Positions 2,433 to 27,681 of a stretch of 64,000 bases of DNA are shown one piece after another. The first letter of the stretch is position 1, and each line of letters starts with the position of its first letter. This DNA is from Clostridia bacterium (GTDB lineage Bacteria > Bacillota > Clostridia > Christensenellales > Borkfalkiaceae). Made by a program: the position numbers and the translations under genes. Where the stretch lies: positions 33,368 to 97,367 of the forward strand of contig JAFTTJ010000006.1 in the NCBI GenBank assembly GCA_017466825.1, read 5' to 3'. The notes beneath the pieces were generated by a model that saw only the letters and a program-made list of their open reading frames with translations, did not search any database and was not told the origin of the DNA.

Positions 2433-2656
2433 TTGCGCTCTCCTACTAACATTTTTATTTAATTCTACCATAAACGGGGCAAAAAGGCAAGCATATTTGC
2501 CAATTCTACTGTGAGTAGAGTTGAAAAACGACAAATTCTACCGCCAGTTTATCAATCGTAGCGTTAGTTCGCTTTAAAGTGGGTTGTAAAAATAGCCTAA
2601 ACGGGGTAAAATTTAAGTGTCAAAAACAAAAATCTTAGCAACAAGGACGGTGCAGT

Positions 2657-3361
2657 ATGAAAAATTTTGAAAACTTTAAAATTACACTTTTTGGCGATTC
2701 AATCGGCAGGGGAATCGTTACCGACAACGGAAAACTCGAACTTATAAAAGATAGCGCCGTAGGGCTTTTTGAAAGTGGTTACGGAATAAAGATTGACAAT
2801 CGTTCGGCATACGGACAATCTTTAAAAAAAATTTATCAAAGGGGGCTTATCGATAGGTATATTCAAACCCTTGATTTAAGTCAAAAAAACGTTGCCGTAC
2901 TAGAGCTCGGCGGAAACGACGCCGACTTTGATTGGAAAACGGTAGGGCTTCACCCCGAAATGGAACACGACGCAAACACCCCCGTAAAAGAATTTGCCCG
3001 TATTTACGGCGAAATTTTGCAAAAGTTAAAGCGCGCCAACGTGGAAGTAATCGTTTGCACGATAGTACCTATCGACTCAAAAAGGTTCTTTAATCGCGTT
3101 ATAGGCGGACTTACGGACAAAAGTAGGGTGCTAGATTTCTTTAACGGGGACTTTAACACCATACACCGCCATCAAGAGATGTTTAATAACGAGATTTTAA
3201 AAGTTGCCTACGGTTACGGCGCAAAAGTCATTGATTTAAGGCAAAAGTTTTTATCAACGAACACCTTTGAAAGTTTTATGTGTCAAGACGGAATTCACCC
3301 CAACGGCGACGGCCACGCCCAAATTTTCAGCGCCGTAAACGAATTTTTAGCAACCGCCTAA
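2657..3361 (+). CDS. SGNH/GDSL-family hydrolase
   Basis: Block I FGDSIGRG, block III GGNDADF and block V DGIHPNGDGH are all present in the 234-aa ORF. Confidence 0.75.
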   Translation: MKNFENFKITLFGDSIGRGIVTDNGKLELIKDSAVGLFESGYGIKIDNRSAYGQSLKKIYQRGLIDRYIQTLDLSQKNVAVLELGGNDADFDWKTVGLHPEMEHDANTPVKEFARIYGEILQKLKRANVEVIVCTIVPIDSKRFFNRVIGGLTDKSRVLDFFNGDFNTIHRHQEMFNNEILKVAYGYGAKVIDLRQKFLSTNTFESFMCQDGIHPNGDGHAQIFSAVNEFLATA

Positions 3362-3366
3362 GTTTT

Positions 3367-3396
3367 GTTGACCTTTTGCCCGTAATGGTATATAAT
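3367..3396 (+). promoter_or_regulatory. sigma-A type promoter (TTGACC, 18-nt spacer, TGgTATATAAT) ending 6 nt before the gtrA-like ATG
   Basis: -35 at 3367-3372 and -10 TATAAT at 3391-3396. The ATG at 3403 has no Shine-Dalgarno sequence, which suggests a leaderless mRNA. Confidence 0.5.
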
Positions 3397-3402
3397 TTTA
3401 GC

Positions 3403-3903
3403 ATGTGGACAAAGTTAAAGGAATTAATTGTAAAACTTTATAACGATAAGCGAATAAGGTTTTTATTCGTGGGTTGTTTAAATACGCTAGTCGGCACGGG
3501 TACTACTATGCTCGTATATTATTTTATGGGCTACGGGCTGTTTGACCAAACCAACATAACCGATATTGAAACTTTTATCGGAACGGTAATAGGCTACGCC
3601 GTAGGTACGGTGCACAGTTATATTTGGAACAAATTTTTCACTTTTCAATCAAAGGAAAAATCGGTTTTGGAATTTTTGCGTTTCGTGGGAGTTTGCGCAG
3701 TGCAGTACACCCTTAACTACCTACTTACCTTACTTGCAAAACAGTTTATTTCAATGCACTTAATTTATACTATCGCAGTTACGCTAGTATGTATGGTAAT
3801 TTCTTTCGTTGGGCACAGTCTTTTTTCGTTTGGTAAAAAATTTGCTAAAAAGGATAGCGAAGAGTTAAACGAACCTATCGAAACCGACCTTGATGAAAAA
3901 TAG
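3403..3903 (+). CDS. GtrA-family membrane protein
   Basis: The N-terminus IRFLFVGCLNTLVGTGTTMLVYY and four TM segments match the GtrA-like family. The track ORF start at 3280 overlaps the preceding gene and was rejected. Confidence 0.7.
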   Translation: MWTKLKELIVKLYNDKRIRFLFVGCLNTLVGTGTTMLVYYFMGYGLFDQTNITDIETFIGTVIGYAVGTVHSYIWNKFFTFQSKEKSVLEFLRFVGVCAVQYTLNYLLTLLAKQFISMHLIYTIAVTLVCMVISFVGHSLFSFGKKFAKKDSEELNEPIETDLDEK

Positions 3904-12433: not shown

Positions 12434-12640
12434 TTATTTGCCAAATAATTCGGTTGCAGAAACTTCAAAGATTTCAATAATTTTATAAATATCGCTTATA
12501 TTTGGTTCTCTTCGACCTTGTTCCCAGTTTGCATACGTGCTAACGGGAATTTTTAATAGTAAAGCAACTTGTTTTTGAGATAGATTTTTATCAATGCGCA
12601 GTTCTTTAAGATTGTCGCAAAAGCGTAGTTTATTTTCCAT
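12434..12640 (-). CDS. small XRE/Cro-CI family HTH transcriptional regulator (68 aa)
   Basis: HTH_3 signature LSQKQVALLLKIPVSTYANWEQGRREP. Confidence 0.8.
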   Translation of the reverse strand: MENKLRFCDNLKELRIDKNLSQKQVALLLKIPVSTYANWEQGRREPNISDIYKIIEIFEVSATELFGK

Positions 12641-12674
12641 TTTTTTGCCCCCTACTTTATAATAATACCATAAA

Positions 12675-12716
12675 GTAGTCGAAATGACTTGACAATAGTC
12701 AAAATGACCACTATAA
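12675..12716 (+). promoter_or_regulatory. perfect sigma-A promoter (TTGACA-17-TATAAT) flanked by two direct 13-bp repeats (candidate operators)
   Basis: -35 at 12688-12693 and -10 at 12711-12716. TAGTCGAAATGAC (12675-12687) and TAGTCAAAATGAC (12695-12707) bracket the -35. The XRE gene diverges from this region. Confidence 0.5.
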
Positions 12717-12745
12717 TATTATTATCAAACAAGGTGGTGGTAATA

Positions 12746-13033
12746 ATGAATAAAATGTCAGCGATAGAAGAACTTTTCTTTAATAACTGTGGTATAGACG
12801 AAAGTTTAAAGGGTAAAAAAGCCGAATATTTGACAAGCCTAGATAAGGTCATTGAAAGGGAAGAGAACTTACTTGAAAAGTTAAGGAAAACACCTGCTAT
12901 TTTTGATTTATATCAAAATTTTCAGATCGAGCAAAGTAAACTACAAGAAGAAGAAAGAAAAAGTTTGTATGAGCAAGCCTTTAAATTTGGGATAATTTTA
13001 GGTCTTGAAATTGCGGGCTTTTGGTGTAAATAG
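12746..13033 (+). CDS. small hypothetical helical protein (95 aa)
   Basis: The ATG at 12746 follows AAGGTGGTGG. Divergent from the XRE regulator. No motif recognised. Confidence 0.4.
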   Translation: MNKMSAIEELFFNNCGIDESLKGKKAEYLTSLDKVIEREENLLEKLRKTPAIFDLYQNFQIEQSKLQEEERKSLYEQAFKFGIILGLEIAGFWCK

Positions 13034-13044
13034 GTTTTTGCTTA

Positions 13045-13149
13045 AATTTTGTTAACGCCCCGAAAAATTCGGGGCGCGTTTTTATGCTAAAAAACGATTA
13101 TTCGTAAAATAACTCTTTAATAAAAAGCAAAAATATCTTTTTGTAAAGA
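13045..13149 (+). repeat. copy 1 of a ~105-bp direct repeat containing a terminator hairpin
   Basis: Near-identical, with a few substitutions and one indel, to 13875-13980. Includes GCGCCCCGAAAAATTCGGGGCGC followed by a T run. Confidence 0.85.
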
Positions 13150-13342
13150 CTAAAACGCTCCTAAAAACAGGCAAAAATAAGCAAAATTCCGCAAAAAACG
13201 CTTATTTTTGTCGATTGACTTGTGTAAATTGTGAAAAATTTTAGTAAAGTATTGACAAGCGCAGTATTATATTGTATTATTTTACCATCCAAACCAACCA
13301 AGTTTGGAAAGGGATAGATTATTCAAAATAAAGGAGAGTAAA

Positions 13343-13867
13343 ATGGAAAACAAAACTAAAATGAAAGAAAAAACTATAAAGATTCATAGCACGGGATATA
13401 AAATAATGCTTGTGATGCTATTAGTATTTTATCTAATTAGTTGTCCGATTTTTTGTATGTTGCCGGACGATTTGTTTTTGCCTACTAAAGTCATAGTATT
13501 TTTAATAGAAACGGCAGGCGTTATTTTTATGTTATTATTTACCGTTTTTGAGCCTGCAAGCAAAGGGCAAATGTTGTTTGCTAGCGAAGAGAATCCAACT
13601 AAGATCCCCATAAAAAGGACTTTAATATTTATACTTTTAACGTCGCTAATTTTTGGGTTTGGGTATACTTATTTATCAACTTTGATGCTAATTTTATTTG
13701 GGGATAAATCGGTTTTTGTAAAATTGGATGTAGTATTACTTTTAAGAATATTCTTCGCTCTTTTTTTAGTGGTGTCGTCATTTATAATTATGTTGACTAC
13801 CTTTATAATTTCATGGACTGTTGCAAAGAAAAAACAACGCAATGAAGAAGTTGCGCAAGACGAATAA
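13343..13867 (+). CDS. hypothetical polytopic membrane protein (174 aa)
   Basis: The ATG at 13343 follows AAAGGAGAG. About four hydrophobic segments. No motif recognised. Confidence 0.5.
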   Translation: MENKTKMKEKTIKIHSTGYKIMLVMLLVFYLISCPIFCMLPDDLFLPTKVIVFLIETAGVIFMLLFTVFEPASKGQMLFASEENPTKIPIKRTLIFILLTSLIFGFGYTYLSTLMLILFGDKSVFVKLDVVLLLRIFFALFLVVSSFIIMLTTFIISWTVAKKKQRNEEVAQDE

Positions 13868-13874
13868 TAATAAA

Positions 13875-13980
13875 AATTTTGTTAGCGCCCCGAAAAATTC
13901 GGGGCGCGTTTTTATGCTAAAAAAAGATTATTCGCAAAATAACTACTTTAATAAAAAGCAAAAATATCTTTTTGTAAAGA
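13875..13980 (+). repeat. copy 2 of the ~105-bp direct repeat containing a terminator hairpin
   Basis: See 13045-13149. Confidence 0.85.
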
Positions 13981-14073: not shown

Positions 14074-14102
14074 TTGACTAAATCGATTTTATTATATATA
14101 AT
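14074..14102 (+). promoter_or_regulatory. sigma-A type promoter (TTGACT-17-TATAAT) upstream of the SPFH/ESCRT-III-like operon
   Basis: -35 at 14074-14079 and -10 at 14097-14102, about 80 nt upstream of the ATG at 14183. Confidence 0.55.
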
Positions 14103-14182: not shown

Positions 14183-15217
14183 ATGGGACTTTTTGGACTT
14201 TTTTCCGGTAAACCACAAGTAATTAAATTTGAACAAAATCTTTGTAATGCAAACGTAAACGACAACAGCGTTTTATTCGTAAGGGTAAACGACCTTGTTA
14301 AGAGTAAAGACGCAATGCTTGAAGTTCCTTTCACGCACAACGCTTTTCTTATTAAAGGCGGTGGTGACTGCCGTTTTTATAAGAGCGGTACTTACGACGT
14401 ATTCGACGACAAAAAGGAAATCAAGGCTTGGAAACAAGGTATTTCAGTAGAAGTAGTATATATTCCTAAGGAAACGTCCGTACTTATTCGTTGGGGCACT
14501 AGCGAAAAGGTTACTTACCGTGATCCTAAGTCTGCAAAAGTAGTACAAGTAGGCGCGCGCGGTCAATTTGGCGTAAGCATTTCTAACCCCGAACAATTTT
14601 TAAGAAAAGTAGTCGGCGCAAGAAAGGAATTTGACCTTCGTGATTTCAGCAACCGTTTCTCGGCGGCTGTTGTTGACGAATTTGCAGACGTATTTTTACA
14701 CGTAGTTACTGCAAACGATATTTCTTACGACTTATTCGACGCTAACAGAAAGAGAATTGCATCTTTAGCAGGCGCAGCGCTTAGCGAAAAGTTTGATAAA
14801 GACTGGGGTATTTCTCTCGTTGACTTCATCATTGAAAGTTTCAATATGGCCGAAGGCGACAAAGAAAAAGTCGAAGCGATTTTGGAAGAAAGAATCAACG
14901 AAGATAAGATTAAAAAGCATCTTGAAGAACTTGAAAGACTCGACGACAAGCAATGGGAAAGAGATAAGTATCTTCTTGGTCTTCAACAAAGCGACAGAGA
15001 AGCGTATTACGAAGTTATCAAGGCAATCGGCAAAAAGGACGACGCTAGAAAGGGCGGAAATTTCTGTCCTAAGTGCGGACATAGCGTAGAATCTACTCAG
15101 GCTTTCTGCCCCCATTGTGGCAACAGAATGGGTCAAGTAGAAGTTGCTTGCCCCAAGTGTGGTAAAATCAACAAGGGCGACGCAAAATTCTGCGGTGGTT
15201 GCGGAAATAAACTTTAA
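14183..15217 (+). CDS. SPFH-superfamily protein of the YdjI type (COG4260-like) with C-terminal double zinc ribbon
   Basis: From memory, the body aligns with B. subtilis YdjI-type SPFH proteins (VLIRWGT..., GARGQFGVSISNPEQF, ISLVDFIIESFNM). The C-terminus has two CPxCG...CxxCG ribbons. The ATG at 14183 follows GGAGGG. Confidence 0.7.
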   Translation: MGLFGLFSGKPQVIKFEQNLCNANVNDNSVLFVRVNDLVKSKDAMLEVPFTHNAFLIKGGGDCRFYKSGTYDVFDDKKEIKAWKQGISVEVVYIPKETSVLIRWGTSEKVTYRDPKSAKVVQVGARGQFGVSISNPEQFLRKVVGARKEFDLRDFSNRFSAAVVDEFADVFLHVVTANDISYDLFDANRKRIASLAGAALSEKFDKDWGISLVDFIIESFNMAEGDKEKVEAILEERINEDKIKKHLEELERLDDKQWERDKYLLGLQQSDREAYYEVIKAIGKKDDARKGGNFCPKCGHSVESTQAFCPHCGNRMGQVEVACPKCGKINKGDAKFCGGCGNKL

Positions 15218-15235
15218 TTTAAAGGGGGAATAAAT

Positions 15236-15568
15236 ATGTTCTTTTTTAAGAAAAAAACTAATGCGGAAAAAAACAAAAACGATAGAGATATGATCGAAGC
15301 CAACAGCAAAATGATGGAAGCGCTTATCGTTTTGACTGATAACGCCGACTTAAAGGCTGAATTTAAGGCTATTGAAGAGCAAATTAAGTACATAATTCCG
15401 CTCGTAGACGACAAAGCGGCTGAAATGGACAAAAAGATTAAAAACGCTATCAGCGACATTAAAATCGAACTCGTTAAAGACAGAGCGGACGACAAGGCGA
15501 CTGCAAAACTCAACGGACTTGTAAAAGACCTTAAAGTTTTAATCGCTGAAAGAAAGGCTCTCGTATAA
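15236..15568 (+). CDS. small coiled-coil protein (110 aa), unknown family
   Basis: Entirely helical and charged in composition. Lies 18 nt after the SPFH gene and 10 nt before the next gene. Confidence 0.45.
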   Translation: MFFFKKKTNAEKNKNDRDMIEANSKMMEALIVLTDNADLKAEFKAIEEQIKYIIPLVDDKAAEMDKKIKNAISDIKIELVKDRADDKATAKLNGLVKDLKVLIAERKALV

Positions 15569-15578
15569 GGAGAACAAA

Positions 15579-16202
15579 ATGGGTTTTTTCAGTAAAATTA
15601 TCGAATTTTTCACGGGTGGCAATAAGTTTAACAAACTCACCAGAGAAGAAGTAGTTGACTCTATTTGCTCTCTTGAAAAAGAACTCGACAATATCGAAAA
15701 GAGTATAGAAGACACCCAGCCGAGAATCGACGCTATTATGGCAAAAGGAAAGGCGACCAAAGAGCAACAAATGCGCCTTTTCTACGCTAAAAAAATCAAC
15801 TCGATTAGGGCTGAGCGTACGGCGAATATCCAAAGGGCAACCTATCTTGCCTACAATATTCAACTTCTTGAAAAACTTAAAAAGGCAATCGACGATAAGA
15901 CCTTCTTCGGCTCGAAGAGTAAGCAATCTTTAAACCAACTTTTGTCAGACCAAAAGGCTCTTGCGGTATTTTTAAACGACGCTTTAGACACTAGAATTAC
16001 GGCTGAACAAGTGCTTACCGACGCGGACGAAGTGTTTAAGGAAGTTGAAGAATCTTACGTTGAAAACGATACTATTTACGGCATTAAAGATCAAGACAAC
16101 GAACTTATGGCTATGTTTGAAACCGAAGAGATGGTAAACGATACCGCTCCGCTTGCAAGCCAACCTGCCGACACACCTAAAAACGGAAATTTAGAAGGTT
16201 AA
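15579..16202 (+). CDS. ESCRT-III superfamily (PspA/Snf7-like) protein, 207 aa
   Basis: MGFFSKI N-terminus like PspA and CHMP proteins, a long helical-hairpin-type heptad region, and a strongly acidic C-terminal third with a Pro-containing tail. Assigned by eye only. Confidence 0.5.
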   Translation: MGFFSKIIEFFTGGNKFNKLTREEVVDSICSLEKELDNIEKSIEDTQPRIDAIMAKGKATKEQQMRLFYAKKINSIRAERTANIQRATYLAYNIQLLEKLKKAIDDKTFFGSKSKQSLNQLLSDQKALAVFLNDALDTRITAEQVLTDADEVFKEVEESYVENDTIYGIKDQDNELMAMFETEEMVNDTAPLASQPADTPKNGNLEG

Positions 16203-16206
16203 GAAA

Positions 16207-16779
16207 ATGGGAATTTCAAAAAAAGAAATAGAAAAGAAGATGCTTATTAAAAAGACTATCAACTCTATGAATAAGCAAATTCAAAAGTTAGAAGAACAAA
16301 AGCAAGTCTATATCCAAGCGGGAAGAGAAGCGAAGGCTAAAGGTCTTTCGGCTCAATACAACTTAGCGCTCAGCGGTCTTAGAATGACTATCGCTCAACA
16401 AAAGAGAGTTTACGAAATGAAACTCAATTTTGAAATCACTTCGCAAATGAAAGATATGACGATGATGACTTCGGAATTTTTGAAGGGCATGGGCGTTTTG
16501 AGCAAGGATATGATGAAACTTTCAAAGGAAAAAGATTTCTACACAGTTCAAAAGCAATTTGAAGAAGCAATGATGGGCGCGGAAATGCAAACCGAACAAC
16601 TCGAAACGTTTATGGACTCTACTCAAAGCGCGTTTGAATCTAACACGCCTATGAGTTTAGAAGACAACAAAGAACTCGACGCTATTATGGGCGTTTCGCT
16701 TACCGACGGCTTAAACGACGATTTAGGCTCTTCGATTGAAAAGGAATTAGAAGCCCTTAAAAAACTCTCTAATCTTTAA
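16207..16779 (+). CDS. ESCRT-III/Snf7 (CHMP/Vps2-Vps24-like) protein with MIM1-like C-terminal helix, 190 aa
   Basis: Basic N-terminal half and acidic C-terminal half. The core aligns by eye with CHMP3-type sequences (REAKAKGLSAQYNLALSGLRMTIAQQKRVYEMK ... FLKGMGVLSKDMMKL). The tail SSIEKELEALKKLSNL fits the MIM1 pattern. Confidence 0.6.
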   Translation: MGISKKEIEKKMLIKKTINSMNKQIQKLEEQKQVYIQAGREAKAKGLSAQYNLALSGLRMTIAQQKRVYEMKLNFEITSQMKDMTMMTSEFLKGMGVLSKDMMKLSKEKDFYTVQKQFEEAMMGAEMQTEQLETFMDSTQSAFESNTPMSLEDNKELDAIMGVSLTDGLNDDLGSSIEKELEALKKLSNL

Positions 16780-16789
16780 TAGGTGATTT

Positions 16790-18931
16790 ATGGCAAGCGC
16801 GGATTTATTATACGAAACCTTTAATCTTCATTTAAACAAAGCGAAGAGTTGTCAGGCAGGCGGTGATTACGTTACCGCTAAAAAGTATTATATACTTGCC
16901 GCAGAACAAATGTTAAAACTTGCTAAAGAGTCGACGGGGGATTTGCAAAAAGCGAGATATTTGCGCGCGCAAAACGTTTTGGAAGAAGCCAAAAAAATGG
17001 ATACTATCGCTCCAAAACAAGCGGTGTTAAACCCCGCTCCGCAAAGCGACGTTAAGCCGACCGTTCCTGCTCAAAAGGTTTCTTTAGCAGAAGCCTTGGC
17101 AAAACTCAATTCCTTAGTCGGTCTTGAAAACGTAAAAAAGCAAGTCAACGCTTGGGTAGACCAAATCCAAACCTTTAAAAAGAGAAAGGAACGCGGACTA
17201 GTCGTGCCGGAAATTACCTATCACATGGTATTTTCGGGCAATCCCGGTACGGGCAAGACTACGGTTGCGCGTATTATGGCGGAAATTTACTGCGCTCTCG
17301 GCGTGGTAACCGACGGTCAACTCGTTGAAGTTTCTAAACCCGACTTGGTTGCAGGACACGTAGGTCAAACGCCTATTAAAACCCAAGAAGTTCTTAAAAA
17401 AGCGTATGGTGGCGTTCTTTTCGTAGACGAAGCCTACTCACTTTTAAAGGGTGGCGATTTCGGTCAAGAAGCAATCGACACTATGCTTAAATATATGGAA
17501 GACCACAGAGATAACATAGTAGTTATCGTTGCCGGTTACGAAAAGCCTATCGAAAGGTTTATTTCGGCTAACCAAGGTCTTCGTTCACGCTTTAACAACT
17601 TTATCAAGTTTGACGACTATACTCAAGAAGAACTATGCGCAATTTTTGAAGGATTGTGCTCAAAAAATCAATATAAACTCATCCCCGAGTCAAGGACTTT
17701 GGTAAGGGCGTACCTTAAACACATTTACGACAACCGCACGCCCGAATTTGCAAACGGTAGAGAAGTGCGTAACCTTTTTGAAGGTATAGTAACCCGTCAG
17801 TCGAGAAGGGTAAACTTAATACCCAACCCCACCGACGAAGACATGGTTACCATTTTACCCCAAGATTTGGCGTTTAGCGTACCCGTTGAACCCACGCCCG
17901 CGCCCGTTCAGCCCGTTCAACCTGTTCAGCCTGCGCAACCCGTTACCCCCGCTCCCACTCCGAGCGAAAACGGTATAGACGTGATAATTGGCAAAAAGGA
18001 AGAAGAAAAGGTTGAAAAACCGCCTATGCCCGAAGATAAGGTCTTAGAAGAAGGCGTTACTTTCGACAGTGAGTTTAAGTTCGACTGGGATAGTCTTCCT
18101 TGCATAACTTTTGACGACGTCGCAGGGCTTGAAAGCGTAAAAGAAGCGGTAAAAATTAAAGTATTGCTTCCCCTTAAAAACCCCGACGCCTTTAAAGGCT
18201 ACGTCAAAAAGAGTGGCGGTGGACTTTTACTTTACGGCCCTCCGGGCACGGGTAAGACCATGATTGCCGCCGCTATCGCAAACGAAATAGGCGCAAAATT
18301 CTGTTCGGTAAAACCGTCCGACCTTTTGCACCAAGGCGCAGGTCAGTCTGAAAAGGCTATAAGGACGTTGTTTGCGCAAGCGCGGCAGTTTAAGTGCGCG
18401 GTAATTTACTTTGACGAAATGGATTCTATTTCGCCTAAGAATACCCGTTCGCAATACGCAAAGCAACTTCGTTCGGAATTCTTATCACAACTTCAAGGCA
18501 TTGAAAGTTACGGCAAAGATACGGGCAACATCCTATTTTTAATCGCCGCAACCAACAAGCCGTGGGATATTGACAGCGCGTTTGTTAGACCGGGCAGATT
18601 CGGTACGAGAATTTACGTAGGACTTCCCGACGACGACGCGAGAAGATATATCGTCGTAAGCAAAATTGACAAGATTAAAGAGCAAGGCGAAGTTAAAATC
18701 GCCGACGATATCCCCTACGACGATATCGTTGCTAAAACCGAAGGCTATAACGGTTCGGACATAGCAAACCTTATGGACGAAATACAAGAAACTTCTATTA
18801 TTCGTGGCGTTTTAACGGGCGAAAAGTGTATTTTGGCAGAAGATTTTGAAAAAGCATTTGCTAAAATTAAGTCGTCCGTTCAAAAAGACGACATTGAAAA
18901 ACTTATGGCTTGGACGGAAGAAAATAACTAA
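16790..18931 (+). CDS. MIT-like domain / SpoVK-CbbX-type AAA+ / Pro-rich linker / classical (Vps4-katanin-FtsH clade) AAA+ ATPase, 713 aa
   Basis: The N-terminal 70 aa resemble the Vps4 MIT three-helix bundle. AAA1 has Walker A GNPGTGKT and Walker B LFVDEAY. The linker is PVEPTPAPVQPVQPVQPAQPVTPAPTP. AAA2 has GPPGTGKT, IYFDEMD and the SRH ATNKPWDIDSAFVRPGRF. Confidence 0.8.
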   Translation: MASADLLYETFNLHLNKAKSCQAGGDYVTAKKYYILAAEQMLKLAKESTGDLQKARYLRAQNVLEEAKKMDTIAPKQAVLNPAPQSDVKPTVPAQKVSLAEALAKLNSLVGLENVKKQVNAWVDQIQTFKKRKERGLVVPEITYHMVFSGNPGTGKTTVARIMAEIYCALGVVTDGQLVEVSKPDLVAGHVGQTPIKTQEVLKKAYGGVLFVDEAYSLLKGGDFGQEAIDTMLKYMEDHRDNIVVIVAGYEKPIERFISANQGLRSRFNNFIKFDDYTQEELCAIFEGLCSKNQYKLIPESRTLVRAYLKHIYDNRTPEFANGREVRNLFEGIVTRQSRRVNLIPNPTDEDMVTILPQDLAFSVPVEPTPAPVQPVQPVQPAQPVTPAPTPSENGIDVIIGKKEEEKVEKPPMPEDKVLEEGVTFDSEFKFDWDSLPCITFDDVAGLESVKEAVKIKVLLPLKNPDAFKGYVKKSGGGLLLYGPPGTGKTMIAAAIANEIGAKFCSVKPSDLLHQGAGQSEKAIRTLFAQARQFKCAVIYFDEMDSISPKNTRSQYAKQLRSEFLSQLQGIESYGKDTGNILFLIAATNKPWDIDSAFVRPGRFGTRIYVGLPDDDARRYIVVSKIDKIKEQGEVKIADDIPYDDIVAKTEGYNGSDIANLMDEIQETSIIRGVLTGEKCILAEDFEKAFAKIKSSVQKDDIEKLMAWTEENN

Positions 18932-19023
18932 TTTACAACTAATATTAAGGGACGTCCCGTATTTAATTATGCGGGACGTTTCTTGAATAAGGCAAAATTC
19001 GATTTGCCTATATGGAGAAAGGA

Positions 19024-22000
19024 ATGAGCGAACTTAAAACTTTAGAAGTGTGTCTTCAATGTGGCGGTGAACTGCAAGCCGACCCAAGAACGGGTGTGCT
19101 TGAGTGTATTTATTGTCACAGAAAGCACGTTGGGGGAACGGAGAGTTTTAGCGACGATTTAAAGAGAATCGTCGAGCAAAGACAACTTCGCGAATTTATA
19201 AAAGCCGAAGAACTTTGCGAAGAACTCATCAAAAAACAACCGAACAGCCCCGAAGCCCATTGGCAAATGGTGCTTGCTAAACTCGGCGTAGTTTACGTAA
19301 ACGAAGGCGGAGATAGTAAGCCAACCTTTTTTAGCTGTTCGTATAGCGACCGTGAAAGTATTTTAAACGATATCAACTATAAAAAAGCGTTAGACAATGC
19401 AAAAAGTGGAGCGGATAGGCTTTATTACGAAGATAAGGCAAAGGAACTCGACGAACTTTTGCAGGAATTTTTCATGCTCATTAAAAAGGAAAAGAACTAC
19501 GATATTTTTATTTCCTTTAAGCATTTAGAAGAAGTTACCGACGCTCACGGCGCAAAGAGAAAAATCGAAACTAAGGACTGCCGTAAAGCGAGAGAAATTT
19601 ACGAGCAGTTAAAAGATAAATATCACGTATTCTTCTCACCCGTATCAATAGGTCAAGACACGGGTATTCAAGGCGAAAAGTACGAGCCGAGAATTTTAAA
19701 GGCAATTCAGAGTTCGCAAGCAATGATTTTGGTAGGTTTTACCGAAGAAAACATTAAATCGCAATGGGTTGAAAACGAGTGGAGAAGATATAAATATCAA
19801 ATAGATAAGGGCAAGAAACTTAAAAAGTCGCTCATCTACGTTTACGACGAAACCCCCGTCCTTTTCAGACTTCCCGCATTTAGAGATATTCAAATGCCCA
19901 ACGTCGACGTCGACAAGGGTAAATATCTTGAAGAGATTGAAAAGGCGGTAGCCTTCGTAAGTTCGAGTAAGGGCTTAAAATCGGCTCTTTCGGGCAAAAA
20001 GGTAAACGTCGACTTTGAGTCGGAAGAAAACGACTCAATGTTTTCAAATAATATCCGTTCGGTAATTTCTATCGGTGGCTCTGGCGGTAAAGAGCAGATA
20101 AAAATTTCGGCAAATGAAGAGCGTTCTCTTCAATCGGCAGAGTCCGATATGGCGAGAGAGCGTTTTGGCGAAGCCATAAACACCTTTAAGGAAATTATAA
20201 AGAATAACCCCCGTTCTGCGCCTGCGCATTGGGGTTGGTTTAAGGCAAAAATCGGCGCAAAGAGCGATCAACTCGTGCCCGACAAACTTGCATCAGGCAA
20301 ACTTGCGTCAAGCGACTTAAATCTTTTGGATAAGGCTATCGAGTATTCCACCGACGCTGATTTTTCTTGGAGCATTATCGACACTATTATAGAGTGTTTT
20401 AAAAAGCAAAGCGATTGGAATAAGGTTAAGCCCTTATACGGTTTTTTAATCAATTACATAGACGAAAACCGTATCAAAAGATTACTTAAAATATTAGAGC
20501 ATACATGTGAAGTTGCCGTAGCGGACGGTAAACCTAAGGTTAGTGAAGACGTTTTTGAAAACGCTAAAAAGATATTTATAGAAGAAGTTAAGCGTTATAG
20601 TATGCAATTTATGGATACTTACGCTACTAATTTGGCTAAATATGGATATTACGACTACGCGCGTAAATATTTCGAGCAACTAGCGTCTGCAAGGAATTCG
20701 AGTTACGCTTACATAAAATTGCTCGCTTGTAGAATTAAATCTTCTTCAATTGCGCAAGCGGTTATCAAACTCGACAAGCCTAAAAACGAGCCCGAGGAAG
20801 GCGTTGTTAAAAAGGTTTCCGAACTCACGATTGCTGAAATTCTTGAAAGAATAGTCGTTTGCGACAATAAGGAAAACAAGTCCTTACCCGTACTTAAATA
20901 CGACGGAACGGACGGCTATGAGACCGGTTCATTTAAGACCTTGCGCGAGTGTTTAGTTTATCAAGCGCGCTATAATAAAGGCGGTGTGCACGGACTTGTT
21001 GAGATTGTTGCAGGCACGTATAAAGAACTCGGCTCGAAAGAAGCGACTAGAGATATTCTTTTCACCGTCGCTGAAGAACTCGTTCTTTCAAGGAACTTTA
21101 CCGAAGCCGAAATTTGGTATAGAGAAATTTTAGCCGACGATCCCAACGATGCTTTAGCCCATTGGGGTACGCTAAAATGTAGGCTTAAAGCCGTTGATGA
21201 CTACGCCGTTTCAAAACACGGTAAAAAACTTCAGGAAATTCTTGAATATAACAACGCTAAAAACTGCGCCGACAACGAACAATTTGAATATTTTGAAAAA
21301 GTTCGTTACGGCGAAATAGCCCCGCCGAGCGGTGGTGACGGCTCTAATAAAAAAGCGCCCGCAAGGTCTTATGAAGAAGTAAAGACTATTTCAGTTTCGG
21401 AAATTTTATTCGGTACTTTAAAGCTTGCCCTTTATGCGATTATAGCGATATTCTCGCTACTTACCATTTTAGAGCCTAAGGTGATTTTTGCAAATATCCA
21501 CTTCGGCGTTGCAATAGCAGTTTTCGTAGGTTTATGGATAGTCGTGCCGATAGTCCTTTCAAGGCATAAAGGTGGCTCGGGCGACGATCTCGACTCGCAT
21601 ATTTTAAATAATAGAAAGACTTCGGAAAAGGCTATGGTTTGGGCTGTTTCTCTCGTAACTACTTTTATCTTCTGTATAGGTATGTTTACGGCAGGGCATC
21701 GCTCTTACCACCTTACCACCGCAAACGATTTAAACCTTCTTGCTAACCTTCCCAGCGCTAACACGGCAGACTATATCCTTGAAAACGATATCGATTTTGA
21801 AGGTAACGAGTTTGGCGCGTTTGGCAAAATGGGCGAGTTTGAAGGAACTTTCGACGGTCAAGGCTACGTTATTTCAAATTTCGTGGTAAACGCGCAAATC
21901 GGCGAAGTTAGCGATTCTTATCAAGGCGTCAACAAGTACAGTTTTGGTTTTATCACTTCTATTACGAGCGGTGAAATCAAAGACGTAACCTTTGATTCAT

Positions 22001-22467
22001 GCGTGGTAAAAATCGATTATCAAAGAGAAGAACAGAGAAGTTATATCGGTTTTGTAACGGGCGTAAACGGCGGTAGCATTGCTAATTGTCACGTTATAGA
22101 CTGTTATATCGCTTTAAGACCGCAAATCGGCTCGGTTGAAAACTTCTTAGTAGGCGGAATTTCTGCTTGTCTTGGACAAGACGTTTACAGTACGCCTAGC
22201 GTAGACAACGCTACTTACGGAAAGGGAAGTATAACTAATTCGTCCTTCGTATGCGTAAACGACGCCGACGATTTTGACGACGACGACAACTACGCTTATG
22301 CGATTATCATTAGTAAAAAAATTCCCGAGCATCGCTACACCGTAAACGGAATTACTTGCACTAACGCAACGGATGCGCTCGTGGGTACGGTAAGTAATTG
22401 TCAAATTATTACTTTAGATAACGGCAAAGTGTTTGAAGTAAACTTTTTAGGCGAAAAGGAGGATTAA
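19024..22467 (+). CDS. zinc-ribbon / TIR / TPR-like / 3-TM / extracellular GLUG-like beta-helix protein (~1147 aa)
   Basis: N-terminal CxxC...CxxC. TIR_2-like block YDIFISFKH ... SQWVENEW (nt ~19495-19881). Three repeats of the type P..AHW...K.G. Hydrophobic helices at nt ~21400-21700. C-terminal DIDF..N.F....EF.GTFDGQGY.ISN plus G-rich GLUG-like repeats. An alternative ATG lies at 19012. Confidence 0.75.
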   Translation: MSELKTLEVCLQCGGELQADPRTGVLECIYCHRKHVGGTESFSDDLKRIVEQRQLREFIKAEELCEELIKKQPNSPEAHWQMVLAKLGVVYVNEGGDSKPTFFSCSYSDRESILNDINYKKALDNAKSGADRLYYEDKAKELDELLQEFFMLIKKEKNYDIFISFKHLEEVTDAHGAKRKIETKDCRKAREIYEQLKDKYHVFFSPVSIGQDTGIQGEKYEPRILKAIQSSQAMILVGFTEENIKSQWVENEWRRYKYQIDKGKKLKKSLIYVYDETPVLFRLPAFRDIQMPNVDVDKGKYLEEIEKAVAFVSSSKGLKSALSGKKVNVDFESEENDSMFSNNIRSVISIGGSGGKEQIKISANEERSLQSAESDMARERFGEAINTFKEIIKNNPRSAPAHWGWFKAKIGAKSDQLVPDKLASGKLASSDLNLLDKAIEYSTDADFSWSIIDTIIECFKKQSDWNKVKPLYGFLINYIDENRIKRLLKILEHTCEVAVADGKPKVSEDVFENAKKIFIEEVKRYSMQFMDTYATNLAKYGYYDYARKYFEQLASARNSSYAYIKLLACRIKSSSIAQAVIKLDKPKNEPEEGVVKKVSELTIAEILERIVVCDNKENKSLPVLKYDGTDGYETGSFKTLRECLVYQARYNKGGVHGLVEIVAGTYKELGSKEATRDILFTVAEELVLSRNFTEAEIWYREILADDPNDALAHWGTLKCRLKAVDDYAVSKHGKKLQEILEYNNAKNCADNEQFEYFEKVRYGEIAPPSGGDGSNKKAPARSYEEVKTISVSEILFGTLKLALYAIIAIFSLLTILEPKVIFANIHFGVAIAVFVGLWIVVPIVLSRHKGGSGDDLDSHILNNRKTSEKAMVWAVSLVTTFIFCIGMFTAGHRSYHLTTANDLNLLANLPSANTADYILENDIDFEGNEFGAFGKMGEFEGTFDGQGYVISNFVVNAQIGEVSDSYQGVNKYSFGFITSITSGEIKDVTFDSCVVKIDYQREEQRSYIGFVTGVNGGSIANCHVIDCYIALRPQIGSVENFLVGGISACLGQDVYSTPSVDNATYGKGSITNSSFVCVNDADDFDDDDNYAYAIIISKKIPEHRYTVNGITCTNATDALVGTVSNCQIITLDNGKVFEVNFLGEKED

Positions 22468-23200: not shown

Positions 23201-24103
23201 TTGAAAAATAAACTAATAACGACTATTTGTATATTAGTCGCCTTAACCCTATCTATTTTGGCGTTTGCGCCGTTTGACTGTGGTAAGTTGGACGGCTCTA
23301 ATTGGATGAGTCGATTAAATAGAGATTTAGAATTAAATCAAGTTTCTATTCCCGGCTCGCACGATTCGGGCGCAACCCATTCAATCGGCGACGTTGCAGG
23401 TAAATGCCAATCGCTTAGCGTTGGCGAGCAACTTAAAATCGGCGTAAGGTTTTTTGATATAAGGTTGCAACAAAGAAAGGGCGTTTTGCATCTCGTTCAC
23501 AGTTTCGTTGACCAAAACTTGCGTTTTGATGACGTCGTAAGCGAGTTTAGCGCCTTTTTAGACCAAAACCCCACGGAATTTTTGTTAATTTCTATTAAGG
23601 AAGACGCCGACCCCGTCGGCTCTACCGTAGATTTTGCAACCGCCGTAAAAACAGCCCTTGAGAAGAGAAAAGAAAGGGTAAATTTCGGCAATTCCTTGCC
23701 TAGCACGGTTGGTCAGGCACGGGGCAAAATGCATATTCTTTCAAGATTTAACGGTGATTTTGGGTTTGCGGTACATAGTGGTTGGCGAGATTCGACTAGT
23801 TTTGAAGTAAACGGCGCTTTCGTGCAAGACAACTACTGCATTTCGGACGAAAACGCTAAGATAAACGATATTATAGCCTGCTTTAAAGAGAGCGCTACTC
23901 AAAAGCACGTTCTTACCTTAAACTTTACGAGTTGTTACTTTGACTATGGTTTTCCGCCACTTTATGCAGGCTCTACGGCTAAAATTATCAACGCTTGGCT
24001 ACTTGAAAATTTAGACTCTCATAAAGGTTGTCTTGGGTTGGTAATAAGCGATTTCGTCACGAGCGAACTCGTCCAAAAGGTGTATAGGAGAAATTATTTA
24101 TGA
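23201..24103 (+). CDS. secreted phosphatidylinositol-specific phospholipase C X-domain protein
   Basis: Signal peptide, then IPGSHDSGA and RFFDIRL motifs like bacterial PI-PLC (PlcA type). TTG start after AGGAG. Confidence 0.7.
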   Translation: MKNKLITTICILVALTLSILAFAPFDCGKLDGSNWMSRLNRDLELNQVSIPGSHDSGATHSIGDVAGKCQSLSVGEQLKIGVRFFDIRLQQRKGVLHLVHSFVDQNLRFDDVVSEFSAFLDQNPTEFLLISIKEDADPVGSTVDFATAVKTALEKRKERVNFGNSLPSTVGQARGKMHILSRFNGDFGFAVHSGWRDSTSFEVNGAFVQDNYCISDENAKINDIIACFKESATQKHVLTLNFTSCYFDYGFPPLYAGSTAKIINAWLLENLDSHKGCLGLVISDFVTSELVQKVYRRNYL

Positions 24104-24746: not shown

Positions 24747-27620
24747 TTAGTCGGGTAAAACGGTGGGGTCTAAAAGTTCGTCTTCATAGACGAAGAAAGA
24801 TTCCACACCCATCATATCGCTACTATACAAGTTGCCGTCTTTATCGACGGTAAGCCTAACCGTAAGCGCGGTAACGCTCAAAGTGATTTGATCGCCGTCG
24901 ACCGAGTAAGAGCAGTTTTCGTAAACGCTTTCGCCAATATAAAAGTCTGCAACGCCGTTGCCGTAGGAAACGATAGTAAACATTTTATAATCGTTAGCGC
25001 CGAAACATACGTAAGTTCCGTAAAGTTTTTCTTCTTCTACGGTAGCGTAATTTGAACGCACGAAACTAGCGGTATAGGTAATAATTTCTTCGTAATCGTT
25101 AAGCATAAACGCAACCGAAATGCTATCCGTAAACGGGTCGTAAGTTCCCGTATATTCAACTACGCCAGCGTATTCGGGGTGGGTTTTGTTATTGCCGTCG
25201 ATTTTGAGTTTAAAGGTAGTACCGCTAATCGACCACTCAAACGGGGTAAGGAAAGATCCGTACATATCAAAAGTACCTTTGCCCGCGCCTTTTTCGTAGT
25301 TGTAAAGTACGAAATTAGTCCAGTTGTAGGAGTCGTAAAATTTCTTTGGCTCGCTAAGGGTATGTACAACGCCGTCTTTATTAAAGGTGATAACCCTATT
25401 GCCGTAAATTGCGTTAATCGTGCCAAACTCTTCAAAAGTTATGTTGAGCATTGCGCCGTTTAAGGTATAGTCGCCGTATTCCTTTTTATATTCGTATTTG
25501 CTACCGCGCATAGACGAAGTGTCTTCGGCGCATTCTGCGATAGTATATACGGTAGCCCTATTGCACCCGTCAAGGTCAATATAAAAATCTCCGTCGCCGT
25601 AGTGTCCTACTTCAGCCCCGTCGGGGGAAGGTTTAACGAATTGCGCAAAGTCTTTAAAGCCGTCGGCGTTTATAAAAATTTCGTGGTAGGACTTGCCTGC
25701 GTTTTCGCCCGTTTGGCATTTGCCCGACGGTACGTAAATAACCGTTTTTGCCGAGTTTACCATAGAGAAGAAGTTTCTGTCAACGTCTTCAATCTTATTG
25801 TCGTAAAAACCTACTTCGGGGGGAGTGGTAGCCCTAAAATACATTCTTTCAAGGTTGTTTGCCATACCGAAAGAAAGGTAGCCCATATACTTAATAGTCG
25901 ACGGAATATCTATAATTTTAAGGTTAAAACTACTTAAAAACGCTCCGTCGCCTATCCTTTCAAGTCCTTCGGGGAAGTATAATCTTGAAAGATAGTTACC
26001 TACGAAAAAGCCCGCAAAAGCGTAATCGTCAATCTCTTTAAGCGTTGACGACATATATAAGTTTTTAACGCTCGTACAGTTGTAAAAAGCGTATTTACCT
26101 ATTTTGGTAAAGCCTTCGGGAAGGGTGATTTTTTGGATTTTAGCGCAGTTATAAAAAGCGAAGTCCGAAATTTCCTTAACGCCGTCGGGAACGGCTACGG
26201 TAGTAAAATCTTCGCCGTCGGCTTTTATATAACCGATAAGAATATCGTTTTCAATAATATAACCCGTCGTATTTTCGTATTCAATAGAGAATATTCCCGA
26301 AGCGTAATCACGCATGAAAAGGTCTTTGCGGTACTCTCTATACGGCGAAGTTTCGCCGTCGTCTGCAGGTACGAAAACGAGTAAATCACTATAATACAAA
26401 AGGTCGCCTTCTACCGCCGTGAAAATCGTTTCGCCTATATCGCAAGGGGTGGGACTTTCAAAATAAACTCTTTTAAGGTTGTTACAAGCGTAAAAGGCAA
26501 GGTCACCTATCGACTCGATATTTTCAGGGAAATAAATTGTTTCAAGTTGGGTAAAGCCGAAAGCGCCGTCGCCGATAGTCGTTAATTCTTCGCCGAAAAC
26601 AAAGTCCGCAACGGGGGTTTCCCAAAAGGCGTAATTGCCGATAGATACGAGATTGGCAAAATCTAAACCCGTAAAGCCCGAGCCAAAAAAGGCTCTGTCT
26701 AGTATAAACATAGCGTCTTCAATGCCCGTTACGTCCGCATTTTTACATCCTTCAAAGGCGTATTTTCCTATCGAGATTAGATTACTAGACTTTACGATTA
26801 TCTCTTCAAGGTAAAAACAGTTGTAAAAGGCGGCGTCAGGGATTAAATCGCCACACCCTACGGTAACTTTTTTAAGGGACTCGGGAATTACGTTATAAAG
26901 GTTAATCTTTATCGTTTCGCCCTCGTGCGTAAAGTCAAAACTTTCGGCGCTATAACGGTTTTTAGCGGGAGAAGTAACGCCAAACGTAAACGCAAAAAAC
27001 GAGTAAGCCGAAACGCTTTTAGTTTCACCGATAAAAGGAATATAGAGTTCGGTTAAAGCGCTATCAGCCGTGGTTACGCCGACTTCGCCGTTTTCAAAAT
27101 CTTTCAAAACGAGAACGTTTCCGAGCGCTCCGCAACCTAATTTTTCAAGCGAGTTGGGGAAAGATATTTTTTCAATCTTGGGGCAGTCGAAAAACGCGCC
27201 TTCGCCTACCGTTTTTAGCCCTTCGCTAAAATTGACTTTGGTTAAATCGTGGCAGTAGCCGAAAGAGTATTCGCCGATATCCGTTATTGAAGACGGGATA
27301 GTAACCGATTGTATTTTGCTTTCTTTAAATGCGTTTGAAGCAATTTCAGTAACGGGCTCGCCTTGGTATACGGACGGAATAACTACGTCGGTTTGGCTTC
27401 CGCTATAACTTATAACAACGCCGTTTTCAATAGTCAAGCCGTCTGCAATAGGGCTTTCGCTTTCGGGGTTGCTTTCCACAATCGACTCGCTTTCAGATTG
27501 GCTAGTTGAAATGAATTCCGAAGTTTGCCCGTCGCTTTGGCTAGTATCTTGTGGAACGCACGCTACGAAAAAACAAAATAATATAGCCGTAAATAAGAGT
27601 AATATAGTCTTTAATTTCAT
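24747..27620 (-). CDS. BspA-type leucine-rich-repeat surface lipoprotein (957 aa)
   Basis: Lipobox signal (LFCFFVAC), a Ser/Glu-rich linker, and many repeats of the type I.IP.S(V/I)..IG..AF..C..L. Confidence 0.75.
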   Translation of the reverse strand: MKLKTILLLFTAILFCFFVACVPQDTSQSDGQTSEFISTSQSESESIVESNPESESPIADGLTIENGVVISYSGSQTDVVIPSVYQGEPVTEIASNAFKESKIQSVTIPSSITDIGEYSFGYCHDLTKVNFSEGLKTVGEGAFFDCPKIEKISFPNSLEKLGCGALGNVLVLKDFENGEVGVTTADSALTELYIPFIGETKSVSAYSFFAFTFGVTSPAKNRYSAESFDFTHEGETIKINLYNVIPESLKKVTVGCGDLIPDAAFYNCFYLEEIIVKSSNLISIGKYAFEGCKNADVTGIEDAMFILDRAFFGSGFTGLDFANLVSIGNYAFWETPVADFVFGEELTTIGDGAFGFTQLETIYFPENIESIGDLAFYACNNLKRVYFESPTPCDIGETIFTAVEGDLLYYSDLLVFVPADDGETSPYREYRKDLFMRDYASGIFSIEYENTTGYIIENDILIGYIKADGEDFTTVAVPDGVKEISDFAFYNCAKIQKITLPEGFTKIGKYAFYNCTSVKNLYMSSTLKEIDDYAFAGFFVGNYLSRLYFPEGLERIGDGAFLSSFNLKIIDIPSTIKYMGYLSFGMANNLERMYFRATTPPEVGFYDNKIEDVDRNFFSMVNSAKTVIYVPSGKCQTGENAGKSYHEIFINADGFKDFAQFVKPSPDGAEVGHYGDGDFYIDLDGCNRATVYTIAECAEDTSSMRGSKYEYKKEYGDYTLNGAMLNITFEEFGTINAIYGNRVITFNKDGVVHTLSEPKKFYDSYNWTNFVLYNYEKGAGKGTFDMYGSFLTPFEWSISGTTFKLKIDGNNKTHPEYAGVVEYTGTYDPFTDSISVAFMLNDYEEIITYTASFVRSNYATVEEEKLYGTYVCFGANDYKMFTIVSYGNGVADFYIGESVYENCSYSVDGDQITLSVTALTVRLTVDKDGNLYSSDMMGVESFFVYEDELLDPTVLPD

Positions 27621-27681
27621 AATAATACCTATAAATAAACCGCAGAAAAAGTTTATTTCCTGCGGTTTAGCATTTCGTCAA

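Follow-up and report, generated by a model that had tools for sequence, protein, structure and literature searches.

The element considered here is a five-gene cassette within a 64,000-nucleotide stretch of a Clostridia bacterium genome (the window), which encodes, in tight succession at 14183-18931, a SPFH/zinc-ribbon protein, a 110-aa protein, a 207-aa protein (E3A), a 190-aa protein (E3B), and an ATPase; all features lie on the + strand unless stated otherwise. The cassette is chromosomal and lies just after nusG-rplK-rplA-rplJ-rplL. E3B (16207-16779, stop codon 16777-16779) ends in ...NDDLGSSIEKELEALKKLSNL (residues 170-190), and the 713-aa ATPase (16790-18931) begins with MASADLLYETFNLHLNKAKSCQAGGDYVTAKKYYILAAEQMLKLAKESTGDLQKARYLRAQNVLEEAKKM. 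The spacer between these last two genes (16780-16789) is exactly 10 nt long, as a preliminary description of this DNA had reported, and an AGGTGA ribosome-binding site can be read in it. Positions 16714-16999 correspond to E3B residues 170-190 plus ATPase residues 1-70, and it is there that the same description had placed a cognate pair: a tail resembling the MIT-interacting motif 1 (MIM1) on an ESCRT-III-like protein and an MIT-like head on a Vps4-like ATPase.

E3B is predicted to have the architecture of an ESCRT-III subunit. Its AlphaFold2 (AF2) model, computed from a 40-sequence alignment with a mean predicted local distance difference test (pLDDT) score of 70 and values of 79-88 over most of the hairpin, places helices at residues 5-45, 48-105, 108-144, 151-162, and 172-188, which is the ESCRT-III alpha1-alpha5 plan with a terminal helix added. 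The Snf7-type core (aa 1-145, 16207-16641) consists of the alpha1-alpha2/3 hairpin and alpha4, and is followed by a short alpha5 and a variable acidic linker (aa 146-171, 16642-16719, pLDDT 41-59). When the model is compared with the PDB by Foldseek, the top 12 matches are all ESCRT-III proteins at probabilities of 0.80-1.00, among them Asgard ESCRT-IIIB, CHMP2A/CHMP3, CHMP1B, Sulfolobus islandicus CdvB, and Loki CHMP4-7; Snf7 cores come below these, and PspA and Vipp1 rank lower. Pfam Snf7 (PF03357) is matched at E<=1 by 27 of 40 relatives (best E=2.1e-5) and is the sole meaningful Pfam family to recur among them, none of the 40 matches PspA_IM30, and one relative carries a precomputed PF03357 match. 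From the predicted topology, the Foldseek ranking, and the Snf7 matches in relatives, we place E3B in the ESCRT-III superfamily, nearer its Snf7/CHMP/CdvB branch than its PspA branch. The ESCRT-III-like label first given to this product is thereby borne out as denoting more than a coiled coil.

The C-terminus of E3B (aa 172-190, 16720-16776, DLGSSIEKELEALKKLSNL) is a MIM1-like amphipathic helix whose heart, IEKELEELKKKM, is nearly invariant and stands behind a variable linker. It is helical in both AF2 models (residues 172-188 in the full-length protein, 115-135 in the fusion described below), with a linker pLDDT below 50 and a hydrophobic moment of 0.44. Across 120 homologues that are 66-100% identical, mean column identity is 86% in the core and 61% in the linker (aa 146-174), and the tail stands out residue by residue: I177 is conserved in 97%, E180 and L181 in 100%, L184 in 99%, K185 in 96%, and K186 in 93%, with M at position 188 in 89%. 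In an alignment of 74 unique tail/MIT pairs, few of them distant, the motif is almost invariant within the main clade. The resulting family consensus, xE(S/Q)xIEKELEELKKKM, agrees with the MIM1 pattern (D/E)xxLxxRLxxL(K/R) in its hydrophobic spacing (i, i+4, i+7) and in the Lys that follows. A relaxed MIM1 core, [LIVM]xx[RKE][LIVM]xx[LIVM][KR], occurs six times in the 17,684 aa of the long open reading frames (ORFs) of the window (about once per 2,900 aa), and only the E3B copy falls within 20 aa of a C-terminus.

The same signature extends to the wider family. An exhaustive E3B profile search yielded 371 clusters at 50% identity, and in 92 full-length representatives the generalised motif [LIVM][DE]xx[LIVMF]xx[LIVM] is found in the last 30 aa of 55, compared with 5.6% of other 30-aa windows of the same proteins, which is an approximately 10-fold enrichment at C-termini. 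In divergent loci the motif is kept despite a linker that is no longer recognisable (IDAELEKLKKKM, IDDELKSLREKM, LDQKLNDISKKL, and LDQKIDAIRQKM), and some distant tails, such as IDRRLSQLEQKK and IERRLQEIRGRR, have a basic residue back at the position of the MIM1 Arg (e.g., IDRRLSQL, IERRLQEI). Being conserved, C-terminal, predicted to be helical, and preceded by a variable linker, the E3B tail has the hallmarks of a docking element of the short linear motif class.

The N-terminal domain of the ATPase (aa 1-70, 16790-16999) is predicted to be an MIT-type three-helix bundle. It was folded as part of a single-chain fusion of window ATPase residues 1-92 with E3B residues 145-190, for which the alignment held 32 orthologous N-domains and two near-identical rows for the tail; helices fall at residues 2-23, 27-47, and 50-69, and pLDDT is 91-96 over residues 11-70 and 85 for the first ten. 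Against the PDB, Foldseek yields at probabilities of 0.95-1.0 almost exclusively MIT domains, including those of VPS4B/SKD1, spartin, VPS4A, yeast Vps4, katanin p60, MITD1, NRBF2, calpain-7, and Sulfolobus CdvC. The root-mean-square deviation (rmsd) of the top matches is 1.3-2.5 A, with a template modelling (TM) score of 0.80 and an rmsd of 1.3 A for VPS4A (1yxr), and a TM score of 0.85 and an rmsd of 1.4 A for CdvC (2w2u_B). The non-MIT matches in the same probability range are a hydrolase N-domain, Wdyg1p, and 14-3-3, and designed tetratricopeptide-repeat (TPR) proteins reach probabilities of 0.2-0.5 only.

Profile comparison leads to the same fold. A 22-sequence profile that includes divergent N-domains matches 2mpk, which we take to be the MIT domain of an oomycete chitin synthase, over its whole length at E=7.9e-5; below threshold, it reaches 2w2u at E=0.024 and VPS4A at 0.18-0.23, with Sulfolobus and human Vps4 MIT domains at 0.02-0.5 overall. 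A single-sequence phmmer search of the N-domain against PDB sequences gave no match, and a homologue search with the N-terminal 119 aa alone as query gave one. Conservation peaks in helix 2 (LAAEQML) and helix 3 (QK.R..RA), and in known MIT domains it is helices 2 and 3 that form the MIM1 groove. Because the AF2 bundle, the Foldseek matches, and the 2mpk profile match coincide, the MIT-type fold that had been read by eye in the first ~70 aa holds, and no other fold is indicated for this domain.

Beyond the MIT domain and a linker, the window ATPase comprises a first ring (D1), a Pro/Gln-rich linker, and a second ring (D2). D1 (aa ~101-362, 17090-17875) is an AAA+ ring of the SpoVK/CbbX/EccA type, with PDB matches to CbbX and EccA1, a TIGR02881 score of 276 bits (2.5e-82; equivalog cut-off 423), and AAA_lid_6 at E=2e-16; its scores against TIGR02881, TIGR02880, and TIGR03922 span 233-276 bits, all below the equivalog cut-offs. 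Its Walker A (GNPGTGKT), Walker B (LFVDEAY), and Arg (GLRSRF) motifs are intact, and its pore loop (17348-17371) reads VAGHVGQT in the window and GYVGQT in most orthologues. The inter-ring linker (17876-18079), which contains PVQPVQPVQPAQP at 17903-17941, is variable in length and poorly conserved in the 120-orthologue alignment. D2 (aa ~431-713, 18080-18928) is a classical AAA ring by its Pfam AAA match and ends in a Vps4_C-type helix (26.8 bits, cut-off 21.3); its Walker A motif is GPPGTGKT and its Walker B motif IYFDEMD. A separate conserved element, EFKFDWDSLP (18071-18100), marks the end of the linker just before D2 and is preceded in orthologues by PPxPEDKVLEEG.

A scan of species-representative genomes recovered 55 loci, which are given L numbers where they need to be told apart. 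Their taxon labels are mostly Clostridia, Clostridiales, Christensenellaceae, and Christensenella, with many gut or faecal metagenome-assembled genomes (MAGs), including chicken-derived Candidatus genera, so that Christensenellales-type gut MAGs predominate; one locus comes from an Anaeroplasmataceae MAG and one carries the label Lachnospiraceae. Proteins identical or near-identical to E3B and the ATPase come from Clostridia gut MAGs, and across many species identity is 66-77% for E3B and 59-71% for the ATPase. In 50 of these loci E3B is accompanied by an MIT-AAA gene, usually as its direct neighbour, and the other five are cut by a contig end or have no detectable ATPase. The SPFH gene is present in 43 of those 50, and the order SPFH, 110-aa protein, E3A, E3B, ATPase is kept in most loci.

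The genes around the pair vary. Homologues matching the N-terminal ~420 aa of the product of 19012-22467, a protein with a zinc ribbon, TPR, a TIR-like domain, three predicted transmembrane segments, and a long C-terminal region, are frequent neighbours of the cassette and are present in most loci, downstream of the ATPase, upstream of SPFH, or, in seven loci (L009, L015, L017, L028, L031, L034, and L037), between E3B and the ATPase; they are absent from L001-L003, L059, L061, and L063. Candidate roles for this protein are those of a sensor, an NADase effector, or a membrane anchor. The TIR_2 score (cut-off 28) is 25.3 bits for the window copy, below the cut-off, and 36.1 bits for the L054 homologue, above it. 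ATPases with the same MIT-like head and a single ring (379-497 aa) are encoded in L050, L052, L053, L054, L057, and L059, and the 481-497-aa forms together with the 485-aa form of L050 have a small extra C-terminal domain; Vps4_C is confirmed for L050 and L054. After the single-ring gene stands a BrxL_N + BrxL_ATPase protein that lacks the protease domain (L050, 9833-11260; L054, 9081-10523; L057, 7884-9332; L059, 4378-5853) and is absent from the window, whose ATPase has the additional SpoVK-type ring instead; single-ring variants sometimes add a trypsin-like protease.

Four further contexts (L057, L059, L061, and L063) contain the pair, always with the MIT-like head and with no other gene consistently in common; the amphipathic tail is kept in L057, L061, and L063 and divergent in L059. 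L057 has a phage-type integrase at its edge (2637-3572). L061 (7254-11991) reads der, plsY, two tandem E3B-like paralogues, a 355-aa MIT-AAA protein, and spoIVA, an arrangement that may point to a link between an ESCRT-III-like dyad and sporulation in other Clostridia. L058 and L062 have a context like that of L061. Long relatives (429-939 aa) that combine an N-terminal E3B-like domain with low-complexity tails are found in the plsY-adjacent position. L063 (6072-14725) encodes an N-terminally extended E3B-like protein and a 717-aa two-ring ATPase without SPFH or E3A, and a Ser/Thr kinase, a PP2C phosphatase, and a VWA protein lie downstream of the ATPase. Since the surrounding genes differ from context to context, the invariant unit is the dyad of E3B and MIT-AAA protein, which is widespread and is wired into at least three settings: the SPFH/TIR/BrxL-associated cassette, the plsY-spoIVA sporulation neighbourhood, and the kinase/phosphatase/VWA locus.

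We consider it fairly probable that the five genes at 14183-18931 form a single operon for a bacterial membrane-remodelling module of the ESCRT-III/Vps4 type, in which the MIT domain of the ATPase captures the tail of E3B. By analogy with ESCRT-III, E3B would polymerise on the inner face of the cytoplasmic membrane, probably acting together with the SPFH-zinc-ribbon protein and the two small helical proteins. Its tail helix, carried on a flexible acidic linker, would serve as a MIM1-like handle; the MIT domain would capture this handle and so bring the ATPase hexamer to the polymer, and the hexamer would extract or remodel E3B subunits using ATP. Polymerisation, membrane binding, and a division of labour between the two rings are steps that we infer. 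The wider proposition, that Clostridia carry a self-contained ESCRT-III/Vps4-type machine, with a dedicated AAA+ disassemblase whose MIT domain recognises the C-terminal helix of a Snf7-type subunit, is advanced tentatively, as a serious possibility.

A different account concerns the role of the cassette and would be compatible with a MIM-MIT mechanism: the genes could be primarily an anti-phage or conflict system rather than housekeeping machinery for membrane repair, in which a TIR/TPR sensor or effector and AAA+ or BrxL-like ATPases control an ESCRT-III-like membrane effector that MIT-MIM tethering either restrains or fires. Several features of the contexts point in this direction, namely the TIR_2 protein beside the cassette in most loci (with the L054 copy above its cut-off), the BrxL-type protein after the ATPase in four loci, the phage-type integrase flanking the L057 cassette, flanks that differ between genomes, and a resemblance of the ATPase, at the generic AAA level, to the anti-phage ATPases IetA/IteA. 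PADLOC, however, gives no system-level match and no model that fits any component other than the ATPase, and the identities reported above for E3B and the ATPase are unusually high for defence genes. The window locus is moreover chromosomal and adjoins the nusG-rplKAJL operon, and the related dyad of L061 adjoins spoIVA, a housekeeping neighbourhood. A primarily defensive role appears doubtful.

It is also conceivable, and in our judgment unlikely, that the parts have been recognised correctly and the pairing has not. The E3B tail would then bind the TPR of the TPR-TIR protein, the SPFH protein, or its own core in an autoinhibited state, and the MIT domain would bind another ligand such as the DDxLLAMFE motif of E3A. 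TPR domains commonly bind C-terminal peptides, and in most loci the cassette has the TPR-TIR protein as a neighbour; back-folding of the C-terminal helix onto the core is a known behaviour of ESCRT-III proteins; the E3B tail lacks the Arg of MIM1; and E3A has a strongly conserved C-terminal motif of its own with no assigned partner, which could be a second docking element. This motif, IYG(x4-5)DDxLLAMFE(T)EE (window ~16090-16130, aa ~166-184), is shared by ~50 E3A orthologues and followed in them by acidic tails that cannot be aligned. Against such re-pairing, the tail motif persists where the other candidate partners are missing: L001-L003 have no TPR-TIR protein, L061 and L063 have neither that protein nor SPFH and E3A, and all five keep an MIT-bearing ATPase directly after the E3B-like gene. 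Every complete locus that has E3B also has an MIT-AAA gene. The tail helix is also modelled with higher pLDDT when fused to the MIT domain (72-80, with a near-empty alignment there) than in full-length E3B (55-59, with a deep alignment), an indirect pointer to contact. A putative MIM-MIT contact between the E3B tail and the ATPase N-domain is indirectly suggested by this modelling, by the conservation peak in MIT helices 2 and 3, and by the retention of the tail where other candidate partners are missing.

Several observations weigh against capture of the E3B tail by a Vps4-like enzyme. Window E3B itself scores 13.2 bits (E=0.074) against Pfam Snf7, below the cut-off of 27.3, and Pfam MIT (PF04212, cut-off 30) is likewise sub-threshold for the ATPase, at 14.4 bits (E=0.042) in the window and 18.1 bits (E=0.0028) in L050. 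Foldseek E-values are weak, at 0.035-0.5 for E3B and 0.03-0.6 for the N-domain and E3B together, a range usual for small all-helical folds; for E3B such values would be expected of long helical hairpins compared across open and closed states, and the ranking is specific. The rise in tail pLDDT comes from a single-chain fusion and speaks for an interface indirectly. The MIM1 fit claimed for the tail stands in part: I177, L181, L184, and K185 occupy the pattern, whereas its most diagnostic residue, the Arg, is an invariant Glu (E180) in the E3B clade of the window, and the first acidic position is G174, for which 72% of homologues have E. The tail also resembles generic amphipathic helices, among them the Bro1-binding C-terminus of yeast Snf7.

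That all these similarities are generic, with E3B an unrelated coiled coil and the N-bundle a TPR-like adaptor of a SpoVK/EccA-type ATPase (EccA-type enzymes do carry TPR N-domains) devoid of any ESCRT-like substrate relationship, would agree with the sub-threshold Snf7 and MIT scores of the window proteins, Foldseek E-values above 0.01, and searches against PDB sequences that were empty for E3B by single-sequence phmmer and a first narrow profile and for the N-domain by phmmer, but it is very improbable given that E3B has none but ESCRT-III proteins among its 12 top structural matches, that high-probability matches of the N-domain are nearly all MIT domains with designed TPRs far behind, that a solved MIT domain is matched by the diversified N-domain profile, and that relatives with the full MIT-AAA-Vps4_C order are co-linear with CdvC.

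Two further points against tail capture by a Vps4-like enzyme concern the ATPase core. Pore loop 1 of window D2 (18326-18352) reads LHQGAGQSE, with the orthologue consensus NQGAG, and has no aromatic residue, with which Vps4 threads ESCRT-III; and the AAA core, in the window enzyme as in its single-ring relatives, is no closer to Vps4/CdvC than to Cdc48 D2. Against the CdvC model (NF041006, equivalog cut-off 650) the window ATPase scores 179 bits, and against CDC48 200 bits. The single-ring ATPases of L050, L052, and L054 consist of MIT, one AAA domain with the pore loop KWVGES, and Vps4_C (above cut-off in L050 and L054), and align end to end with the NCBIfam CdvC model (residues 8-377 with 7-364 of 370) at 208-224 bits, with Cdc48 D2 slightly higher. 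The preliminary description of the enzyme as Vps4-like calls for qualification: it suits the MIT head, the Vps4_C helix, and the ESCRT-III gene next door, but the enzyme has two AAA cassettes in place of the single cassette of Vps4, and its Vps4-like ring, D2, lacks the aromatic pore loop 1 (K-W-M/V-G). Because it departs from Vps4 in ring number, pore loop, and equivalog score, the window ATPase is not filed as Vps4; the system most likely works like ESCRT-III/Vps4.

Aligned with D2, the single ring of the L054 ATPase is 43% identical and has SKWVGESEK at the pore loop. The simplest history suggested by these sequences is that an MIT-AAA gene gained a SpoVK-type ring and that the pore loop of D2 then decayed. 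Since D1, which lies between MIT and D2, keeps an aromatic/His pore loop and D2 has lost its aromatic, D1 would be the likelier threading motor of the window version, the threading role having presumably moved from D2 to D1.

In relation to archaeal and eukaryotic ESCRT-III/Vps4 systems, E3B likewise has a Snf7-type hairpin, after which come a flexible linker and a docking element at the C-terminus, its gene stands side by side with the ATPase gene as in archaeal cdv/ESCRT loci, and the ATPases of L050, L052, and L054 match CdvC co-linearly from end to end. The differences are a bacterial host, an additional SpoVK/CbbX-type ring with intact Walker motifs, HQGAG for KW(M/V)G in pore loop 1 of D2, and RPGRF in place of the RR motif that is a feature of Vps4. 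The tail differs from canonical MIM1 by its Glu for Arg, and Sulfolobus CdvB has a Pro-rich MIM2 that is not a helix (cf. PDB 2w2u). SpoVK, CbbX, and EccA share the core and the AAA_lid_6 lid with D1; here this ring is part of a longer protein, with an MIT domain before it and a classical AAA ring after it, and the single-ring relatives do without it.

PspA, Vipp1 (IM30), and LiaH belong to the same ESCRT-III superfamily, and MGxF-type N-termini are found on the partner proteins of E3B. E3B itself differs from PspA systems in matching Pfam Snf7 rather than PspA_IM30, and CHMP, CdvB, and Asgard structures rank over PspA and Vipp1 in its structural comparison. To our knowledge, PspF of the PspA systems has no MIT domain. 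PspA systems are described as having no Vps4-like ATPase, and PspF is a transcription factor (PMC7619361). The Bacillus subtilis PspA-YdjGHI system resembles the cassette in its SPFH (Band_7_1) and zinc-ribbon partners, YdjI and YdjG, and YdjI recruits PspA (PMC11188069). One archaeal ESCRT subtype has a protein that combines SPFH, a coiled coil, and a zinc ribbon, and archaeal 'Main' ESCRT loci also include a kinase and a phosphatase (PMC11188069), which may be compared with L063.

According to a 2025 review, an ATPase of the Vps4 kind that regulates ESCRT-III 'appears absent in bacteria' (PMC7619361), and the 2024 survey of Makarova et al. finds ESCRT systems in archaea 'but not in bacteria', with an MIT domain or ESCRT neighbours as its criterion for Vps4 (PMC11188069). 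Whether any ATPase takes the role of Vps4 for the bacterial homologues was posed as a question by Liu et al. in 2021 (PMC8281802). Ravi et al. (2024) described bacterial MIT+Vps4-like ATPases in loci where snf7 is replaced by a TPR-6TM protein, and PspA or membrane-anchored Snf7 beside 'inactive AAA + AAA' proteins (PMC11237479). Their systems are similar to the present one in having bacterial MIT-bearing Vps4-like ATPases, two-ring AAA proteins near ESCRT-III genes, and a neighbour with TPR and transmembrane segments. Unlike their MIT+Vps4 loci, in which snf7 is displaced, a soluble Snf7-type protein with a MIM1-like tail is encoded directly upstream here; and unlike their two-ring proteins, whose N-terminal ring is inactive and for which no MIT domain is noted, the window ATPase has an MIT domain and a D1 with intact Walker A and B motifs. 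Firmicutes are represented among their examples by a single locus, a different one that has PspA. The literature library searched, which is incomplete, yielded no account of a Firmicute in which a Snf7-type protein ending in a MIM1-like tail is encoded beside an MIT-bearing ATPase.

If the proposed mechanism is correct, ATP-driven ESCRT-III remodelling through MIT-MIM recognition would not be confined to archaea and eukaryotes. It would either predate the archaeal-bacterial split or have been acquired and then re-engineered; in this instance threading would have passed to a SpoVK ring. The dyad bears on bacterial membrane biology as well as on the evolution of ESCRT. It offers a concrete bacterial candidate for the role of Vps4, in which a Snf7-type subunit and its docking helix are kept together with an AAA+ enzyme that has an MIT domain in many gut Clostridia, and it opens to experiment whether bacteria use MIT-MIM recognition and turn over ESCRT-III with ATP. 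Candidate roles include membrane repair, sporulation-linked fission, and phage defence alongside TIR and BrxL-like proteins. The two-ring form further raises the question of how an enzyme of the Vps4 kind can accommodate an inserted AAA ring of another type.

The first gene of the cassette (14183-15217) encodes a SPFH protein (Band_7_1, E=1e-16) that also contains a double zinc ribbon (DZR/Zn_ribbon, E=1e-10 to 1e-12) and a coiled coil, and its true start is likely the ATG at 14183 (MGLFGLFSGK) rather than the TTG at 14138 of the ORF list, because GGAGGG lies upstream and orthologue N-termini agree. The 110-aa helical protein (CC110, 15236-15568) has a hydrophobic-basic N-terminus (MFFFKKK) and a position conserved in most loci, and a Pfam scan assigned it no family. 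E3A (15579-16202), also helical, begins with MGFFSK, carries its conserved motif ahead of a variable acidic tail, and has an orthologue in nearly every locus; no sequence link to ESCRT-III or E3B emerged from hhalign (E=0.12-0.2), from Pfam, which gave no consistent match, or from a PDB profile search, which gave none. Its Pro-containing tail, APLASQPADTPKN, had been offered as possibly MIM2-like; it is indeed present, but among ~50 orthologues it is unique to the window, and that reading is rejected. Hydrophobic-basic N-termini of the MG(L/F)F..K type recur on the SPFH protein, CC110, E3A, and E3B of distant relatives (MGLFKSK in L050-L054; window E3B begins with MGISKK), and resemble the N-terminal membrane-binding segment of CHMP3, PspA, and Vipp1.

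Upstream of the cassette, a terminator-like hairpin (13885-13907; 10-bp stem with 8 G-C pairs, then a T-run) closes the preceding unit, and the best promoter-like site, TTGACT-17-TATAAT (14074-14102), agrees with 11 of 12 consensus positions, a consensus match only, just ahead of the first gene. No comparable hairpin follows the cassette on the + strand through 22467. The upstream flank (within 12434-13867) contains an XRE-type helix-turn-helix gene (- strand), a DUF6809 protein, and a protein with five transmembrane segments, and the downstream flank (23201-24103) a PI-PLC-X-like phospholipase. The phospholipase and the five-transmembrane protein had no tblastn match in the related loci (the XRE-type and DUF6809 genes were not searched), and all four genes appear to lie outside the cassette. 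Farther downstream, at 24747-29760 on the - strand, two large surface-type proteins with BspA-type leucine-rich repeats or the Listeria-Bacteroides repeat are encoded, which are unrelated to E3B and the ATPase.

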